Positions 145 through 6,125 of a DNA stretch of 6,125 nucleotides are shown here, one piece after another. Position numbers and translations under genes: made by a program. Every line of letters starts with the position of its first letter. The first letter of the stretch is position 1. The stretch lies in the sequence record PZ049726.1, one strand, 5' to 3'. Origin of the DNA: a phage. The notes beneath the pieces are model-generated. The model made no database searches. It was given only the letters and a program-made list of their open reading frames with translations, and was not told the DNA's origin.

Positions 145-1095
145 TTATATTTTGTGTTTAAATGCAACTATTCTTATATTCTTATTCTCGTAAACTCTGT
201 TCCAGTTTGCTTGATTTGCTAACTCAGCATTTGAAGGTGATTTTTTAGCAACAGAAGCATCAGTAAACTTAACACCTCTTGGATGTAGTAAGAAGTGTTG
301 TCTGTTTATTAATATATCTTCTCCAGCTAATGAATCTCTGTCTGTTTCAGTTGGTACAGGAGCAGCTCCATTACCTTCACCTATTGCACCTTGTCCGAAT
401 AAGTATGTAGTATATACATCTCCATCTTTAGGACAACCATCATCAACTATAACTTTTCTTCCTAAGTATGAAGGGAAATCAACAACTCCTTGAGAGTTAG
501 GTATATATTGAATTAAGTTTTGTTTCTCTAGTTCTGCAAATACAGTTGAGTGCATAGCAACTGCAGTTAACTTATCAGATGCATCTCCTAGTTTTGTTTT
601 AGCATCTATAAAAGAAGTTCCATTTATTTTAGCTAAGTCCCCTTCAAGAGAAGATATGTCATGTACGTTTCCACTCATTGTACTCGAAGCAAATACACCT
701 TTTAAAACAGCTAATAATGTTTTTTGTCTCTGTCTTGCCCAATATTCAGCCACTAAATCACCTATAGCTTTCATTGGATCATCACCACTTAAAGCCGTTG
801 CTAAGTCATTAACTGACCACGCTTTACCTCTCATTAATAAAGCAGCAACGTCTTGACCTGCAGTTATTTTACCAGGTGTTAATGCTCCATTATCATCTAA
901 AACTTCATCATCACCATTTAAATCTTTCCAGTATGGCATATTTATTAATCTACCACCTGCTAATGCTAAAGAATCTAATTCTTTGTCCTTAACAATTATT
1001 CCACACTTTACCAATGCAGATAATTCAGCTGTCCTTTCTATAACATAAGGGTTAAATACCTCTGGTACTATTACATCAGCTATCTTTGTTGACAT
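145..1095 (-). CDS. phage major capsid protein
   Basis: 316-aa ORF directly downstream of the scaffolding gene, the canonical position of the major capsid gene. Globular, Gly/Ala/Asp-rich composition typical of capsid proteins. AAGGAG sits 9 nt upstream of the ATG. Family assignment is from position and overall resemblance, not a search. Confidence 0.75.
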   Translation of the reverse strand: MSTKIADVIVPEVFNPYVIERTAELSALVKCGIIVKDKELDSLALAGGRLINMPYWKDLNGDDEVLDDNGALTPGKITAGQDVAALLMRGKAWSVNDLATALSGDDPMKAIGDLVAEYWARQRQKTLLAVLKGVFASSTMSGNVHDISSLEGDLAKINGTSFIDAKTKLGDASDKLTAVAMHSTVFAELEKQNLIQYIPNSQGVVDFPSYLGRKVIVDDGCPKDGDVYTTYLFGQGAIGEGNGAAPVPTETDRDSLAGEDILINRQHFLLHPRGVKFTDASVAKKSPSNAELANQANWNRVYENKNIRIVAFKHKI

Positions 1096-1115: not shown

Positions 1116-1730
1116 TTATTTATTATTTTTTAATTGTTCTGCTAGTGTTGGGTTTTCTTTTAAAATCCTTGCTTGCTCTGTAAGATTGAAAGTTTCTTTT
1201 GCCCAAGGATTAGCTACACTTTGTCCTTTTCTTCCGTAATTTCCTACTCCACCAGTATTTTTAGGAGTTAGCTCTTCAAACAAATAACTATCACTTTCTC
1301 TTAAGCCTTTTATTTGACTTTCTAAACCTTCTAACTTTCCATCTTGATATTTTATACTTTCCATATCAAGTAAAGCTTTTATAGCCTTACTATTCTTACA
1401 TTTCGAACTATTCAAGGCATTATCAAGAGCATAATCAAACTCCATAGCTTTTATTTTATTCTCATATTGTTCAGAAGCTTGTTTATTTGTAAGCTGTAAC
1501 TCCTCTATTTGCTTTACTAGAGTTTCATTGTCTTTATTGTTCTTAGATAAATCTTCTAACTGTGTTTTGTAGTCAGTTAATCTATTATCTAACTCTTTTT
1601 TTTGTTCATTCACTTGGTCGAATCTAGCTTTAGGTATAAAGTTTCCATCATCAACCATTATCTTTTTATCACCTAACTTAGATGTCACTTGGTTATAAAG
1701 TTCTTCTCCTAACAATTGTTTTAAATCCAT
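1116..1730 (-). CDS. phage scaffolding protein (GP20-like minor structural protein family)
   Basis: 204-aa ORF. N-terminus MDLKQLLGEELYNQV...KIMVDDGNFIPKARFDQVN and C-terminus NPWAKETFNLTEQARILKENP match my recollection of the GP20 scaffold family. The central region is strongly coiled-coil-like (Lys/Glu/Leu/Gln-rich). It sits immediately upstream of the capsid gene. GGGGGA-type RBS upstream. Confidence 0.75.
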   Translation of the reverse strand: MDLKQLLGEELYNQVTSKLGDKKIMVDDGNFIPKARFDQVNEQKKELDNRLTDYKTQLEDLSKNNKDNETLVKQIEELQLTNKQASEQYENKIKAMEFDYALDNALNSSKCKNSKAIKALLDMESIKYQDGKLEGLESQIKGLRESDSYLFEELTPKNTGGVGNYGRKGQSVANPWAKETFNLTEQARILKENPTLAEQLKNNK

Positions 1731-2010: not shown

Positions 2011-2291
2011 TACTTACACCCTCCTATTTGTATTTTACCTACTTTCACAACAACCTCATTATTTTCATTTAACTCTATTACCGGTTCTTTGTAATGCTCG
2101 AATTCAACTTTAACATTTACAGACTGAATTAACTTTGTTGGTTTGATTTCTTCTGCATCTAACTTTAGAGTTCCAAATTGAGGTATTTTGAAATTTTGAA
2201 TATCTTTAGAAGATATACCTCCATAACCAAAAGATTGCTTGTTCCAATCATCTGTAAGTATTCCTATAACTTGCTTATTAATATTATCCAT
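2010..2291 (-). CDS. hypothetical phage protein (93 aa)
   Basis: ORF with GGAGG 7 nt upstream of the ATG. Its stop overlaps the start of the next gene (TAATG), indicating translational coupling. No recognisable motif. Confidence 0.55.
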   Translation of the reverse strand: MDNINKQVIGILTDDWNKQSFGYGGISSKDIQNFKIPQFGTLKLDAEEIKPTKLIQSVNVKVEFEHYKEPVIELNENNEVVVKVGKIQIGGCK

Positions 2292-2393
2292 AAATCCTCC
2301 ATACGTTTTTTAGTTGTAACGACAACATAGATTAAGCTTAATTTGTTCTTTAACGCCTACAATAGAAGCTAAAAAGGCGCATAAAAAAAGAAC

Positions 2394-2522
2394 TTATAAA
2401 AAGTCCTTACCGTATTCTTTAAACCATTTATCTAGTTTTGCATTACTTTCACCATCTATCCAATTTCTAAGTTCCTCGCCTATTTGGTCGAGTTCTTTTT
2501 CAAGCACTGGTATAGTAGTACA
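2394..2522 (-). pseudogene. relic 3' fragment of a Mu F-like head morphogenesis gene (42 codons plus stop, no start codon)
   Basis: Minus-strand translation CTTIPVLEKELDQIGEELRNWIDGESNAKLDKWFKEYGKDFL* aligns without gaps to the -1-frame tail of the upstream Mu F-like gene (CTTIPVLEKNLDEIGQELKDWVNGKQSPKLDSWFEKYGKYFI*). By hand count that is 26/42 identical residues and about 65% nucleotide identity, with differences concentrated at third codon positions. There is no start codon or RBS of its own. Confidence 0.5.
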
Positions 2523-2532
2523 TATAATAAAA

Positions 2533-2550
2533 GCACCTAATTAAAGGTGC
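2533..2550 (-). terminator. hairpin with downstream U-rich tract, candidate intrinsic terminator of the HNH cassette
   Basis: Perfect inverted repeat GCACCT / AGGTGC (6-bp stem, 6-nt loop). On the minus-strand transcript it is followed by UUUUAUUA. The HNH stop codon (2541-2543) lies in the loop. Confidence 0.35.
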
Positions 2551-3224
2551 ATATCCGATAAATATTTATAAAATTGTTTTCTAGTTGTTTTTTCACCTTT
2601 ATATTTGTTGTGAAATTTATTATGACAACTTACACAAAGAGTTACTCCATTGTCTAAATCTAATCTTAAATCTTTATGAGTATCATAGCTATCCAGATGG
2701 TGTGCCACTAAATTGTATCCATCATCTTTGGTTTTACCACATATCTTGCAAGTATAATCATCTCTTTCTCTAACACTTTTACTCCAAGACTTATATCCAA
2801 ATATTCCACGATTTTCAATTCTATGATTTTCGGATATATTGTTATCATATCTTCCATTGTTTTTACCACTATTAGCTTTAGATATTTTCCTTTTATACTC
2901 TTTCGTCTGCATTACTTTTCTAAGATTATCCCTGCTTTCAGTAGAGTTTAAATAAGTATTGGCTATGTTTTTAGAATTATTTACAAATGCTTCTCTGTCG
3001 GATTTATCTGTATTCTTCCACCAATTATCAAAAGCTTCTTTTCTGCTTCTTGTATTAATTCCTAATTTTCTTAATTGTCTTGATAAATTTCCACTATCAC
3101 AATTAAGTTCTTTAGATATCATAGGTATTGACATTTCTTCATCAATGTAAAGTTTTTTTAATACCTCCGAATATTCCATTCCATATCTTTCTTCAACTTC
3201 GATCATTCTCTTAGATTTTCTCAC
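2541..3224 (-). CDS. HNH family homing endonuclease with N-terminal helix-turn-helix-like region
   Basis: C-terminal HNH motif is directly visible: CKICG ... AHH ... DNG ... CVSCHNKFH (Cys-x2-Cys, His-His, Asn, Cys-x2-Cys-His-x3-His). Preferred start is GTG at 3222-3224, with AGGAGG (3231-3236) 6 nt upstream, giving 227 aa. The ORF-track start at 3263 is also GTG but lies upstream of the predicted -10 box. An in-frame ATG at 3204-3206 is an alternative. Confidence 0.8.
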   Translation of the reverse strand: MRKSKRMIEVEERYGMEYSEVLKKLYIDEEMSIPMISKELNCDSGNLSRQLRKLGINTRSRKEAFDNWWKNTDKSDREAFVNNSKNIANTYLNSTESRDNLRKVMQTKEYKRKISKANSGKNNGRYDNNISENHRIENRGIFGYKSWSKSVRERDDYTCKICGKTKDDGYNLVAHHLDSYDTHKDLRLDLDNGVTLCVSCHNKFHNKYKGEKTTRKQFYKYLSDMHL

Positions 3225-3251
3225 AACAAACCTCCTAATGTTTATACTATA

Positions 3252-3280
3252 ATTATAGTACACAATCCATTAGGATTCAA
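3252..3280 (-). promoter_or_regulatory. sigma-70 / SigA-like promoter for the HNH gene
   Basis: Minus strand reads TTGAAT (3275-3280), a 17-nt spacer, then TATAAT (3252-3257). It starts 3 nt after the -1-frame Mu F stop and lies about 16 nt upstream of the AGGAGG RBS. Confidence 0.45.
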
Positions 3281-3282
3281 GT

Positions 3283-3438
3283 TTAAATAAAGTATTTCCC
3301 ATACTTTTCAAACCAACTATCAAGCTTCGGACTTTGCTTTCCATTAACCCAGTCTTTCAATTCTTGCCCAATTTCATCAAGATTCTTTTCTAGTACGGGT
3401 ATTGTAGTGCAAAGTCCATTCGGGTGTCCAACGGCAAA
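3283..3438 (-). other. C-terminal coding segment of the Mu F-like gene lying in the -1 frame relative to ORF 3390-4220
   Basis: The -1 frame is open for 52 codons (FAVGHPNGLCTTIPVLEKNLDEIGQELKDWVNGKQSPKLDSWFEKYGKYFI*), ending at TAA 3283-3285. It contains an HPN-x-x-C-T motif resembling the HPNCRC-type C-terminus I recall for Mu F / SPP1 gp7 proteins, and its last 42 codons are homologous to the relic at 2394-2522. Confidence 0.55.
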
Positions 3439-4220
3439 TTATTAACTGAATAAACAACTCCATTCCTACTCCTACTCATACACAATTCACAAGTTCTATG
3501 ACTACCTGAAGTAAGCCATTTAATTCCAGCAACAAACGGATTTCTTTGGCAACTTCTCTTCTGTGCTTGTTGAAAAGTATGATTTATTGCAGTACGGGCA
3601 AGTCTTTGAGCGTTATAATCAACTTGGGTAGAAGCTTTACGATATGTAGTCCTCCATTTCAAAGACTTTCTAGCACTAGGATTCAAATACACTTCCAAGT
3701 CCTTAGCAATTTCATACATAGACTTCTTTTCTGCAATTCCTTGAGCTAGAATATAGTCAATATCCTTTTCAAACTTCTTAGTGCATGCCCATATTCTTTT
3801 GCTTAAGCCTAATCTATCTTTGTAAAGCTTCCCAGACATTATTTCATTAACTGCAGCTTGAGGAACTTTAGCAAACATATCTATAAAGGTATCAGCTAAA
3901 TCTAAGCTAAAGGATTTTTTTATATCGAAGAGCATATTTAGTTGAGTTTCGTTGGCTATATTAGCAATCTCTATTAAATCCTTACTTAGTCTCTTATCAA
4001 TAGAATTAGAGAAAGTTGAAATATCTGTTTGTAAGGATTTTAATACACTTCTTACATATCTTTCGGATAAACTATCCTTTGATACTTTTGAAAGCTTCTT
4101 AGATGTATTTAAGTACATTTGCTTATATATATCTTTTATTTCTCTTTGAAGCTTCTTTGTTAGATGTATCTTTTTCTTATTAGCTTCTAGGCATAACTTT
4201 TCGTATTCTGATTTATTCAT
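3390..4220 (-). CDS. phage head morphogenesis protein, Mu F / SPP1 gp7-like (apparently frameshifted near the 3' end)
   Basis: 276-aa ORF immediately downstream of portal. The segment KWLTSGSHRTCELCMSRSRNGVVYSVNNLP fits the W-x-T ... R ... G-x-V pattern of the Mu F family. The expected following motif is found in the -1 frame, so the intact gene probably ran from 4220 to 3283. No strong Shine-Dalgarno; the start follows the upstream stop by 2 nt. Confidence 0.7.
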   Translation of the reverse strand: MNKSEYEKLCLEANKKKIHLTKKLQREIKDIYKQMYLNTSKKLSKVSKDSLSERYVRSVLKSLQTDISTFSNSIDKRLSKDLIEIANIANETQLNMLFDIKKSFSLDLADTFIDMFAKVPQAAVNEIMSGKLYKDRLGLSKRIWACTKKFEKDIDYILAQGIAEKKSMYEIAKDLEVYLNPSARKSLKWRTTYRKASTQVDYNAQRLARTAINHTFQQAQKRSCQRNPFVAGIKWLTSGSHRTCELCMSRSRNGVVYSVNNLPLDTRMDFALQYPY

Positions 4221-4222
4221 AA

Positions 4223-4405
4223 TTATTTTCTGTTTAAATCAACATAAAGAGTTTTCTTTATGTATTTAGCCATCTCTAAATATTGACTTCTTATCTTTTT
4301 ATCTATTCTACTATCTTCTAGCATAGTTACAAAAGCATACATTGATTCTTTGAATTCATCAGTTTGTGTAAGCTTTACTTCTAAATTTATAAAGTTATCT
4401 TCCAT
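4223..4405 (-). CDS. hypothetical small phage protein (60 aa)
   Basis: ORF whose ATG overlaps the portal stop (TAATG) and whose stop lies 2 nt before the Mu F-like start. Packed in the operon; no recognisable motif. Confidence 0.5.
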   Translation of the reverse strand: MEDNFINLEVKLTQTDEFKESMYAFVTMLEDSRIDKKIRSQYLEMAKYIKKTLYVDLNRK

Positions 4406-5811
4406 TACTCAACTACCTCCTCAATCATTCCTATGCTATCTTCTAACATAGTCTTTTCTAATTGTATTTGCTTAAGTTCTTCATCAGCTATTTCATCAGT
4501 AGCATTTACCCACTTCTTAATATAAGTTTTCTTACTCATTGTCTGAGTATTGACTTGTTGCATATCAATAGTTTTTTCAGTATCTTCATCCTCTTGTAAT
4601 GGATATTGATTTTCTACAACTACCTCAAATTCTTCTAAGATAGGTAGCTTAGTTATGTTATAAACCTCTATCATTTCAAGAGTTGCTTTTATCATCCACT
4701 CAAGAGCAGGTCTCCAAGCTTTCATTTTCTCCTCGCACCTAGTAATAAGTTGCCAGTACAAAGCTTTCATAGACTTACCACTTGTCATCATACCTTTTAA
4801 ATCTTGGTTGTTGATTAAAGGTATATTTAAAACCTCATGCATATCAGATTTAATTCTATTAAGTGTGTTTTCCATACGCTCATTATAATTAAAATCAGTT
4901 TCTACAGTTCCTATTTGTGCTTGTTTTCCTTCACTTGCTGTTTGGTCAGTTGCTACATCCCAATATGCTCCTGGTTTTATTTTGAAATGTTTAGATGCAT
5001 CGGGATCTACATCTGTTCCATAGATAATCCTATTCATTCCTTTTCTAAGAGCATCTATATCCTCACTAGATAGTTTATTGTAAGCAACAGCATTGTCGCA
5101 TAGTTCTTCAACATCACTTTCTCCCTTTAAGTCTCCAGAAAGTCCATCATTTAATATTACATATGCTGGTATACCTGTGAGCTTTAAGTCAACATCTTTT
5201 GAAATAATTTCAATAGGAGTTCCATATCCATCGTATATACCTTCATTGAGAATACATTTGTCTTTAACCATTTCGTATTTCTGTTTCCATATCCTCTGTT
5301 CATTCTTAGTTTCTGCTTGGTTAAGTTGATAGAAGAATATAATCTTTCGTAGTTCATCTACTCTATCATCAAAAGGCTCATACACAAACTCTAAGCTAGG
5401 CACAAACATTATTCTTATTGTCTTAGTTATTGTATCTGCATGAAGCTTAATAGCAACTCTTTTACCTATGAAACAATCTCTAGCTGCTTTAATAAGTTTA
5501 TCTTCAAATAAGTTCTTTTTTAGAAGTTTTTTAATGTATTTATTTATTTCTTCTGCTTGATCCTTTAATGTATCATCGTCAACTGCAATTGAGAATGTTG
5601 GAGCTTTACCAAATAGGAATCTAGCTTCTTCTTTAATAAGCTTCTTTATATAGTTGACCTTCTTTTTAGTTGGAACATAATCCTCTTCATCAACTACCCA
5701 ATCTTGACCTGGCCCCTCATAAATATCATAAAGGTTTATAATATCACTATGTTCTTTAATTATCTCACTCCCGTAAAGTCCTTCAAGTTCAGATTTTATT
5801 ATATTTATCAT
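4405..5811 (-). CDS. phage portal protein (SPP1 gp6-like)
   Basis: 468-aa ORF directly downstream of the terminase large subunit C-terminus. Size, position and acidic C-terminal tail are typical of SPP1-type portals. AGGAGGTGA RBS lies 4 nt upstream of the ATG. Confidence 0.75.
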   Translation of the reverse strand: MINIIKSELEGLYGSEIIKEHSDIINLYDIYEGPGQDWVVDEEDYVPTKKKVNYIKKLIKEEARFLFGKAPTFSIAVDDDTLKDQAEEINKYIKKLLKKNLFEDKLIKAARDCFIGKRVAIKLHADTITKTIRIMFVPSLEFVYEPFDDRVDELRKIIFFYQLNQAETKNEQRIWKQKYEMVKDKCILNEGIYDGYGTPIEIISKDVDLKLTGIPAYVILNDGLSGDLKGESDVEELCDNAVAYNKLSSEDIDALRKGMNRIIYGTDVDPDASKHFKIKPGAYWDVATDQTASEGKQAQIGTVETDFNYNERMENTLNRIKSDMHEVLNIPLINNQDLKGMMTSGKSMKALYWQLITRCEEKMKAWRPALEWMIKATLEMIEVYNITKLPILEEFEVVVENQYPLQEDEDTEKTIDMQQVNTQTMSKKTYIKKWVNATDEIADEELKQIQLEKTMLEDSIGMIEEVVE

Positions 5812-5822
5812 AATCTCACCTC

Positions 5823-6125
5823 CTATCTACTGTTAAACTTTCTAACTCTACCATGTGTTTTCATATCCATTTCTAATGCGTACCTGGTTGAATCGACGCT
5901 GTGATTGTCTTTATCTTCCAATTTAGGAATAACATTACCATCTTTATCAGTTTGATAATCTATATTCTCAAATTCCTTAGCTGTATTAGGAGTTCTTTTA
6001 TTATCAATAACAATAGCTTCTAAATCATCAAGCCAGTTTTCGCCAAACTCAATACTTCCTGGACCTTTTTTAGCTTTGAGTGCTTTTATTCCTAATTCTC
6101 TAAGTTCTGCAATACTTCGTGGTTC
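5823..6125 (-). CDS. terminase large subunit, C-terminal part (5' end outside window)
   Basis: The minus-strand frame is open from the window edge to TAG at 5823-5825 and translates ...GENWLDDLEAIVIDNKRTPNTAKEFENIDYQTDKDGNVIPKLEDKDNHSVDSTRYALEMDMKTHGRVRKFNSR*. The D-x-H-x-x-D-x-x-RYAL segment resembles the conserved C-terminal nuclease-domain end of terminase large subunits. The gene sits upstream of portal. Confidence 0.6.
   Translation of the reverse strand, partial: EPRSIAELRELGIKALKAKKGPGSIEFGENWLDDLEAIVIDNKRTPNTAKEFENIDYQTDKDGNVIPKLEDKDNHSVDSTRYALEMDMKTHGRVRKFNSR

Follow-up and report, generated by a model that had tools for sequence, protein, structure and literature searches.

We analysed a stretch of phage DNA of 6,125 nucleotides (nt; sequence record PZ049726.1; hereafter, the window) in which a gene of the Mu F / SPP1 gp7-type head morphogenesis family is found with two versions of its 3' end, one directly after the gene body (tail A) and another directly after the stop codon of a downstream HNH endonuclease gene (tail B). 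Tail B is the native end of the Mu F gene and tail A a foreign import, and very probably the resident end was moved ~0.9 kb downstream by a mobile HNH cassette that inserted in the Mu F gene. The displaced tail, first pointed out in an original prediction made from the window alone, is a correct observation of an ordinary relic, its placement in frame with the HNH gene is due to chance, and its context is a variant of known endonuclease-cassette architectures. Positions refer to the window unless a related locus (L numbers) is named, P numbers denote homologous proteins, and the elements on which the argument rests are the following:

2394-2522, minus strand: tail B, the displaced native Mu F 3' end of 129 nt, comprising 42 codons (CTTIPVLEKELDQIGEELRNWIDGESNAKLDKWFKEYGKDFL; CTTIPVLEK...GKDFL) and a stop
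2523-2550, minus strand: HNH terminator, with the hairpin GCACCT-TTAATT-AGGTGC (2550-2533) followed by the T-run TTTTATTATA (2532-2523)
2541-3224, minus strand: HNH endonuclease gene encoding 227 amino acids (aa) from a GTG start (3224-3222), with a helix-turn-helix-like N-terminus, NUMOD3 and a C-terminal HNH domain
3231-3236, minus strand: Shine-Dalgarno sequence AGGAGG, 6 nt upstream of the HNH GTG and kept in L010 and L012
3252-3280, minus strand: promoter-like site for HNH (TTGAAT, 17-nt spacer, TATAAT) with 10 of 12 consensus matches
3255-3281, minus strand: third, partial copy of the Mu F motif, CTTGA-ATCCTAATGGATTGTGTACTAT, within the HNH promoter and the left half-site of the original insertion
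3283-3438, minus strand: tail A, the imported Mu F 3' end (FAVGHPNGLC TTIPVLEKNLDEIGQELKDWVNGKQSPKLDSWFEKYGKYFI, then a stop), with its Cys codon at 3411-3409 and its stop at 3285-3283
3423-3428, minus strand: frame lesion GAC-ACC, with one C missing between 3426 and 3425, in the conserved D-H-P-N-G-x-C motif
3390-4220, minus strand: body of the Mu F / SPP1 gp7-type head morphogenesis gene, 276 aa as encoded, with the out-of-frame end TRMDFALQYPY

A native and a foreign end of the same gene

Translation of positions 2391-2573 on the minus strand in a single frame gives FYKYLSDMHL-stop-LGAFIICTTIPVLEKELDQIGEELRNWIDGESNAKLDKWFKEYGKDFL-stop and confirms that a Mu F tail follows the HNH stop in the same frame. 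The HNH stop TAA occupies 2543-2541, six codons (LGAFII) fill 2540-2523, the Cys codon TGT lies at 2522-2520 and the stop of tail B at 2396-2394. Tails A and B are identical at 26 of 42 aa (E 2e-21) with similarity beginning at the Cys codon, and alignment of their DNA detected none upstream of it; when compared to the HNH-free relative L001, the match of tail B starts at A-TGT, which locates the junction to within 1 nt and bears out the predicted sharp boundary at this codon. A repeat finder run on 2300-3500 left the two tails unreported because they are too diverged (65% identity in nt), and the pair was revealed by protein comparison and MAFFT alignment instead. The original prediction had also considered a sequence error behind the frame relationship, but the identical junction sequence is present in two independent assemblies, L005 and L013. 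Its statement that the fragment has no start codon or ribosome-binding site is likewise correct: no ATG, GTG or TTG stands at the start of tail B, and TGTACTACTATACCA, which precedes an internal GTG at 2507-2505 that opens a 37-aa open reading frame (ORF), contains no Shine-Dalgarno-like purine run.

That the fragment is a displaced Mu F tail is evident from its identity to the tail of L001 (Mu F gene at 6001-6933 of that locus) at 128 of 129 nt. The protein sequence of tail B is identical to the C-termini of P0001, P0002 and the L001 Mu F protein, and across resident tails its identity amounts to 98-100%. Tail A, which directly follows the Mu F body and reads CTTIPVLEKNLDEIGQELKDWVNGKQSPKLDSWFEKYGKYFI and a stop from its Cys codon (3283-3411), matches tail B or the L001 tail at only 84 of 129 nt (65%) with synonymous sites saturated; it is closer to the cassette-borne tail of L012 (104 of 129 nt), a locus with an otherwise very different Mu F gene. 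With respect to the Mu F body, only the -1 frame of tail A is open. On its left side the foreign DNA has a gradual edge, with ~95% nt identity between the Mu F body and L001 up to ~3441 and 60-75% from there through tail A, as expected from homologous exchange inside the gene body, and its right edge is sharp, at 2523/2522. The native and foreign polarity of the two tails and the out-of-frame position of tail A lay beyond the reach of the original prediction, as did the chimeric HNH ORF of L010 and the third motif copy described below.

The HNH gene and its insertion site

The HNH protein matches PF01844 with 34.8 bits (cut-off 21.4), NUMOD3 with 21.6 bits (cut-off 20.4) and the HNH endonuclease family phrog_8446 (E 7e-22), and P0121, also of 227 aa, is 100% identical to it. 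Matches to its helix-turn-helix-like N-terminal region are weak, and a PDB sequence search returned the generic HNH core alone (5h0m, E 2e-5). The -10 hexamer and spacer of the promoter-like site are conserved in five other lineages (L005, L006, L010, L012 and L042). At the other end of the gene, the stop codon is located in the loop of the terminator hairpin, so the LGAFII codons are part of the terminator, which forms the right end of the cassette. This is the one terminator-like site in 2200-3500, where shuffled sequences lead to an expectation of 0.3; it folds with -9.9 kcal/mol (z -2.0), and equivalent hairpins follow the HNH stop in L006, L012, L099, L100, L101 and L102. With its own promoter-like site, ribosome-binding site, stop and terminator, the HNH gene is a self-contained unit.

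The third motif copy corresponds to CTT GA(CC)AT CCT AAT GGA TTG TGT ACT (L-D-H-P-N-G-L-C-T) with 2 nt missing at GAC-CAT, has 2 mismatches to CATCCTAATGGANTGTGTACNAC (0.00 occurrences expected from 200 shuffles) and is kept upstream of HNH in five lineages. The HNH unit is consequently bracketed by two half-sites that have TGTAC in common, ...HPNGLC-T on the left and C-TTIPV... on the right, which is the hallmark of an endonuclease gene located at the very site where it inserted. Occupation of this site is polymorphic: L001 and L002 are without HNH and have an intact Mu F gene of 310 aa, and L003, L004 and L098 are without HNH and retain footprints of the cassette. The HNH domain, the NUMOD3 motif and this presence/absence polymorphism agree with a free-standing HNH homing endonuclease gene, with site-specific cleavage and homing as its presumed activities. 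In HNH-free L002 with its intact Mu F gene, the slot after the Mu F stop contains a 150-aa ORF (L002 4029-4481) with a weak GIY-YIG match (21.0 bits versus a cut-off of 22.6), and a different endonuclease family may be using this slot.

Decay of the displaced tail in related loci

The HNH family has nine relatives at at least 47% identity among 5.8 billion proteins and one further lineage on viral contigs, and genomic context was recovered for all ten lineages; the one on viral contigs was recovered with an alignment as query, a scan with the single HNH protein having given no match. HNH is present in the window, L005, L006, L010, L012, L013, L042, L099, L100, L101 and L102, which differ in what is left of the displaced tail and in its frame relative to the HNH stop:

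Window, L013 and L005 (one junction): displaced tail intact, from the Cys codon; frame 0
L012: displaced tail from TTIPV, 3 nt past the Cys codon; frame +2
L099: displaced tail from the Cys codon; frame +1
L101: displaced tail from the Cys codon; frame +1
L010: last 12 tail codons left, fused to the HNH ORF; frame not applicable
L006, L042 group, L100 and L102: no recognisable displaced tail; frame not applicable

Of the four independent junctions, three thus place the right end of the HNH unit at the Cys codon, and the remaining one, that of L012, lies 3 nt further on. Comparing the junction across related genomes, as the original prediction had suggested, shows that the sharp boundary does mark the recombination breakpoint and is found again in L012, L099 and L101, no more than 3 nt from the Cys codon, but that the in-frame arrangement carries no significance, because the displaced tails of these three loci stand in frames +2, +1 and +1. 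For the same reason we regard the frame of tail B in the window as a coincidence; while the homology of the tails is far beyond chance, their in-frame relation is not (one in three a priori, and found at one of the four independent junctions).

Nine HNH relatives end at a conserved ...HL/HS stop. The HNH ORF of L010 (P0123) has lost its last nine residues together with the terminator and ends in ...TTKEQF-DKWFKKYGSEFM, the last 12 codons of the Mu F tail before the stop, which makes it a real chimera, one that arose by deletion and not by readthrough. After this chimeric ORF (L010 4194-4290), a new hairpin (GGTTACT...AGTAACC) and a T-run are found in place of the usual terminator at the HL stop. 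The series from intact over trimmed and fused to absent tails is what is expected for a neutral relic. A second outcome is seen in L003, L004 and L098, where frame lesions and hybrid A/B tails persist and the HNH gene is gone; these loci are footprints of HNH loss through recombination between the two tails, as is shown for L003 and L098. Tail B is best read as a non-expressed, decaying relic that probably also acts as a homology arm.

Frame lesions accompany the HNH gene

Where intact Mu F genes read GAY CAY CCN, the window has GAC-ACC-CGA, and past this lesion the frame of the Mu F body continues for another 12 codons until it meets a stop at 3390. This 1-nt deletion is shared by L003, L012, L013, L098, L099 and L101, some of them with very diverged Mu F bodies; a sequencing error as the source of the frameshift was rejected because seven independent assemblies, the window included, share the deletion. 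An indel in the His-Pro codons is present in ten of ten HNH lineages and absent from the HNH-free, intact L001 and L002, and 117 of the best 120 Mu F homologues (1822 in total) are full length. The indels of the HNH-bearing loci fall into five classes:

Class a: 1-nt deletion (YTGGACACCC), in window/L013, L012, L099 and L101
Class b: +1 (CCC-T-AAC), in L005
Class c: +6 (CCN TGA CCN), in L010 and the L042 group
Class d: +11 (CCG, two stops, 2 nt, then CCA), in L006 and L100
Class e: +5 (creating an ATGA stop/start overlap), in L102

Most likely, the His-Pro indel would keep the cassette's own full-length copy of the target from being cut.

Possible translation across the lesions

The L042 type is a phage group with genomes of ~40 kb, represented by 17 viral contigs from four datasets, of which four carry HNH and all 17 carry the in-frame interruption CCG TGA CCR; a search of 2.9 million viral contigs found no uninterrupted version between the same flanks. 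Downstream of the TGA, 41 codons are open in all seven haplotypes, and the pN/pS ratio of this tail is 0.27, compared to 0.76 and 0.99 in the other frames and 0.14 in the gene body. No canonical in-frame start codon appears until near the end of the tail. Genome-wide reassignment of TGA in this group was rejected, since 13 of 88 other ORFs terminate with TGA and translation table 11 leaves all other genes intact. In the window class, the window and L012 differ at seven of the 14 codons after the lesion; six of these changes are synonymous and one is not when read in the tail frame, as opposed to one synonymous and six nonsynonymous in the frame of standard decoding, and dN/dS over the whole tail is 0.07. 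Tails downstream of such lesions evolve like coding sequence, an indirect sign of translation that is compatible with two interpretations. The tails may be translated in spite of the lesions, or the lesions may have arisen recently and repeatedly at a mutational hot spot, for which an endonuclease cut site is one candidate.

Matched take-off and landing codons together with a stop are seen in L005 (CCC TAA C, tail in +1), in L010, L004 and the L042 group (CCN TGA CCN, tail in frame) and in L006 and L100, and re-pairing of the peptidyl-tRNA(Pro) at these lesions would restore D-H-P-N/L-G-x-C exactly. The take-off/landing shape is absent from the window class (window, L012, L099 and L101) and from L102, which has the shape of an ATGA restart. 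In the window, no canonical -1 slippery heptamer (X XXY YYZ) was found by eye in the overlap of body and tail (3438-3390). Inspection of the lesions by eye revealed no convincing hairpin or Shine-Dalgarno-like sequence that could act as a stimulator. A hop of tRNA(Pro) across 8 nt, between the CCG at 3434-3432 and the CCG at 3423-3421, is not favoured because the conserved L-D-H would be lost.

The His-Pro indels might be obligatory self-immunity marks of the HNH cassette family, with the head protein still made at full length by recoding, but we hold this to be a tentative idea that is rather less probable than its opposite. The routes could include re-pairing after the stop, as a +1 shift at CCC-TAA-C, a +6 in-frame stop-hop at CCN-TGA-CCN or a +11 hop at CCG-stop-stop-NN-CCA, as well as termination-reinitiation at ATGA/GTGA overlaps and, in the window class, an unrecognised -1 event at YTG-GAC-ACC-C. 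For the window type, a -1 event would yield NGVVYSVNNLPLDHPNGLCTTIPVLEK, and its absence NGVVYSVNNLPLDTR with the C-terminus MDFALQYPY; for the L042 type, a hop would give ...VEDIPLDHPLGR, readthrough ...DHPWPLGR, and termination a C-terminus of ...PLDHP.

Alternative explanations

Several other accounts of tail B were weighed. If its in-frame arrangement were functional, readthrough of the HNH stop would produce an HNH-Mu F tail fusion protein, as the original prediction had envisaged for the case that the stop is read through, and tail B indeed lies in frame 0 at only six sense codons from the stop, with the L010 HNH ORF truly ending in Mu F tail codons. Yet the L010 fusion arose when the end of HNH, its terminator and 30 codons of the tail were deleted, the frames differ in L012, L099 and L101 (+2, +1 and +1), and the ...HL/HS stop is conserved in nine HNH relatives. 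TAA followed by T is a strong termination context, which is the context of the HNH stop, and the location of this stop in the loop of the terminator hairpin means that many transcripts should end before the tail, so that we see next to no prospect of such a fusion. Slightly less improbable, though still very unlikely, is separate translation of tail B (e.g., from GTG 2507, as a peptide including MLEKELDQIGEELR) into a small subunit that complements the truncated Mu F body. The window's Mu F body lacks an in-frame tail, a 37-aa ORF does start at this GTG, and split Mu F genes with stop/start overlaps exist (ATGA in L102, GTGA in L100 and TAGTG in L006), but these overlaps are at the upstream tail and never at the displaced one, GTG 2507 has no Shine-Dalgarno sequence and omits the conserved CTTIP residues, and tail B stands behind a terminator and is trimmed or lost elsewhere.

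Splicing of a self-splicing intron or intein that joins the Mu F body to tail B would fit the frequent presence of HNH genes in group I introns and inteins as well as a junction that precedes a Cys codon, as at an intein's C-extein junction. It can be practically dismissed, given that no Rfam intron family was detected in 2200-3600 at E up to 1, that HNH comes with all signals of a separate gene (promoter-like site, ribosome-binding site, stop and terminator), that ...FII instead of the intein-typical ...HN precedes the Cys with a stop codon in between, that a complete tail with its own stop lies upstream of HNH, and that the HPNG codons would be missing from a body spliced to tail B. A tandem duplication within this genome followed by divergence, without any import, would leave two direct copies of one gene segment flanking an insert, as is observed. 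Such copies should be about equally distant from relatives, but tail B matches L001 at 128 of 129 nt while tail A differs at 45 of 129 with synonymous change saturated, and tail A shares 104 of 129 nt with the cassette tail of L012 in a very different Mu F gene; we consider this origin extremely improbable. Of a different nature is the proposal that tail B is kept at the level of the mobile element because near-perfect homology to the right of the break makes homing more efficient. In its favour, four independent lineages have the junction at the Cys codon or no more than 3 nt from it, tail B is 98-100% identical to resident tails (tail A, at 65%, would recombine poorly), and the A/B recombinants show that the tail is recombinationally active. 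However, the recombinants actually seen delete the HNH gene, and HNH lineages persist with the tail absent or unrecognisable (L006, L042, L100 and L102) or reduced to 12 codons (L010), which leaves this a possible but doubtful explanation.

A model for the displacement and its limits

The explanation that we favour, displacement of the resident Mu F end by a mobile HNH cassette, builds on the observed anatomy of the locus, the native and foreign polarity of the tails, the conserved junction, the half-sites, the association of lesion and HNH gene, and the products of decay and recombination. The cassette would extend from ~3440 to 2523 and comprise the lesioned D-H-P-N motif, tail A including its stop, the motif remnant and promoter, the HNH/NUMOD3 gene and the terminator. 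In this model, the HNH endonuclease would cut HNH-free Mu F genes within GAC CAT CCN AAT GGN NNN TGT AC, and the break would be repaired from a cassette-bearing genome. The left end would pair with the Mu F body, which would copy everything from the lesion and tail A through the motif remnant to HNH and its terminator, and the right end, from near the Cys codon, would pair with the displaced tail of the donor so that the recipient's own tail stays as copy B. None of the three target-like copies would then be a working target: the first carries the indel, the second lacks 2 nt as well as its right half, and the third has lost its left half. Tail B would be untranslated, neutral and decaying DNA, untranslated because it has no start codon at its beginning and lies behind a terminator and an HNH stop of TAA followed by T.

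Some points weigh against this model. Both the target site and the role of the lesion in immunity are deduced from comparative anatomy, and the promoter call relies on consensus and conservation, with promoter-like sites overall not enriched over shuffled sequences. Tail A is out of frame, so that no intact gene is visibly restored, unlike in the fungal hybrids discussed below, and the Mu F gene of the window prophage may simply be broken. Furthermore, tail B is still a perfect ORF in the window, with decay seen in relatives only, and the first origin of the three-copy structure falls outside what the model accounts for.

Genomic neighbourhood

The closest relatives of the window are Paraclostridium prophages; a megablast search of the whole window against annotated phages returned one distant capsid/scaffold match and nothing covering the Mu F/HNH region. 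All genes of the window are on the minus strand and together form a siphovirus head module, which beyond the elements listed above comprises:

5823-6125, minus strand: end of the terminase large-subunit gene
4405-5811, minus strand: SPP1-type portal gene
Between the portal and Mu F genes, minus strand: 60-aa ORF
Between the HNH and scaffold genes, minus strand: two small ORFs
1116-1730, minus strand: scaffold gene
145-1095, minus strand: major capsid gene

Full-length Mu F homologues have 310 aa with PF04233. The Mu F body of the window on its own scores 17.5 bits against this profile, below the cut-off of 29.6, and that of L042 scores 37.9 bits; phrog_1657 matches the window's Mu F body with E 2e-56 over profile positions 10-283 of 337 and intact L001 over 10-333. 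The gene can be assigned by these matches to the Mu F / SPP1 gp7 (PF04233) family, including the C-terminal H-P-N-x-x-C region. A tandem 6-nt duplication in the body (AGTAGG-AGTAGG, 3465-3476) turns the MSRNG of all relatives into MSRSRNG and is found only in the window; L013, with an identical HNH, does not have it. Further upstream, a patch of ~60 nt (3891-3950) is only ~60% identical to L001 while the rest of the gene has 93-100% identity, indicating mosaic recombination inside the Mu F gene. Several Mu F homologues (P0031, P0039, P0045 and P0015) extend 130-200 aa past the ...GKDFI tail with an extra C-terminal domain, so that the Mu F tail can serve as a linker to added domains; one of them, P0015 (400 aa), also has internal duplications. 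Downstream of the Mu F stop, all relatives share an intergenic block (TTTTTAGCTTCTATTGYAGGCGT...AAAAAACGTATGGAGG) in which we noticed a sub-threshold match to the Rfam GP20-b RNA (2302-2370, minus strand; 24.2 bits versus a cut-off of 36.2, E 0.014); this RNA stayed under threshold in all eight loci scanned.

Endonuclease genes were also observed elsewhere in the head modules. A 208-aa HNH_3 (PF13392) gene lies between the terminase and portal genes in L003 (2659-3285) and L004 (2614-3240), genes that are adjacent in the window (5811-5823), which reveals a second presence/absence site for an endonuclease in the head module. In the L042 group, the ORF at the terminase position and the capsid gene are apparently interrupted by ORFs of ~154-219 aa (L087 2834-5171, L092 941-3332, L090 8377-9814 and L081 5089-6526), one of which starts with IYRIY...YVGQT and looks GIY-YIG-like. 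Mobile endonucleases seem to have inserted at many places in the genomes of this group.

Comparison with known systems

The closest parallels in organisation are the mORF hybrids of fungal mitochondria, known from atp6 of Allomyces macrogynus, atp6, atp9, cox2 and nad3 of Glomus, atp9 of Rhizopus and cox2 of Mortierella, in which the native C-terminus is 91-98% identical in nt to relatives and the inserted one 64-81%, with the native copy often unexpressed (PMC3630166). The order of gene body, foreign C-terminal segment, endonuclease ORF and displaced native C-terminal segment is the same here, and so is the combination of a near-identical native copy (99% here) with a diverged inserted one (65% here). 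Unlike these mitochondrial hybrids, the present one belongs to a phage or prophage from a Firmicute, and its HNH/NUMOD3 gene has its own promoter and terminator, whereas the fungal mORFs are in-frame or co-transcribed and belong to other endonuclease families. The inserted C-terminus, in frame there, is out of frame here, and an indel in every lineage and a third motif remnant are further differences.

Free-standing phage endonucleases such as the seg and mob genes of T-even phages are known for intron-less homing. These are likewise stand-alone genes beside conserved genes that are polymorphic in close relatives and co-convert foreign flanks, but they usually lie in intergenic regions and neither duplicate the end of the adjacent gene nor disrupt its frame. 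In the MobA/gene 60 system of phage T4, a 50-nt gap blocks self-nicking and is bypassed while the endonuclease is progressively lost, and a T4-like HNH cassette consists of an insert-encoded homologous region (homR, 67-81% DNA identity) and a protective coding interruption (bioRxiv 10.1101/2022.08.31.505936). Our locus resembles it in a free-standing HNH homing endonuclease that would be aimed at a highly conserved stretch of a phage gene, in a diverged copy of the target region of its own (tail A and motif, 65% in nt), in an interruption in every endonuclease-bearing genome (ten of ten here) and in some that lost the endonuclease, in the progressive loss of the latter, and, for several relatives, in a stop right after a codon that is matched by a downstream "landing" codon. 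It differs in its target (Mu F instead of topoisomerase II), in the size of the interruptions (-1, +1, +5, +6 and +11 nt versus 50 nt) and in their location upstream and not downstream of the endonuclease gene. There is also no gene split with CTE/NTE tails here, the resident segment is kept as a displaced duplicate instead of being deleted, the window's 1-nt deletion has no take-off/landing shape, and 1-11 nt leave no room for a take-off stem-loop, a nascent-peptide signal or an internal Shine-Dalgarno sequence. The likeness to MobA is one of architecture, and bypass, frameshifting and protection from cleavage are hypothetical in our case.

For the lesions themselves, the shifty stop of prfB (CUU UGA C), at which +1 frameshifting occurs, and stop-hops with matched codons flanking the stop offer precedents, the latter known only from synthetic constructs with no natural in-frame stop-hop on record (PMC5009743). 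The lesions of L005 (CCC TAA C), of L010, L004 and the L042 group (CCN TGA CCN) and of L006 and L100 (CCG, two stops, 2 nt, then CCA) have comparable shapes, but no upstream Shine-Dalgarno stimulator was recognised at our loci, and the window's own lesion is of a different shape.

Implications

The relic in the window reveals that a small phage HNH family inserts at a Cys-Thr codon pair, inside the Mu F motif with the highest conservation, and it shows that phages share the "bring your own gene end" strategy known from fungal mitochondria. The affected Mu F genes are annotated as truncated proteins of 251-276 aa with orphan mini-ORFs and could be mistaken for prophage decay. The recoding hypothesis, which sits mostly in the relatives and not in the window, gains its interest from a natural series of five different interruptions of 1 to 11 nt that always accompany HNH: if these protect from self-cleavage and are read through or hopped, they would be short and tractable recoding signals. 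The logic of T4 gene 60 has long been an isolated case, of which the HNH/Mu F cassettes would, if this is true, be an independent replicate, a second endonuclease-plus-coding-gap cassette after MobA/gene 60 and one with the first natural in-frame stop-hop.

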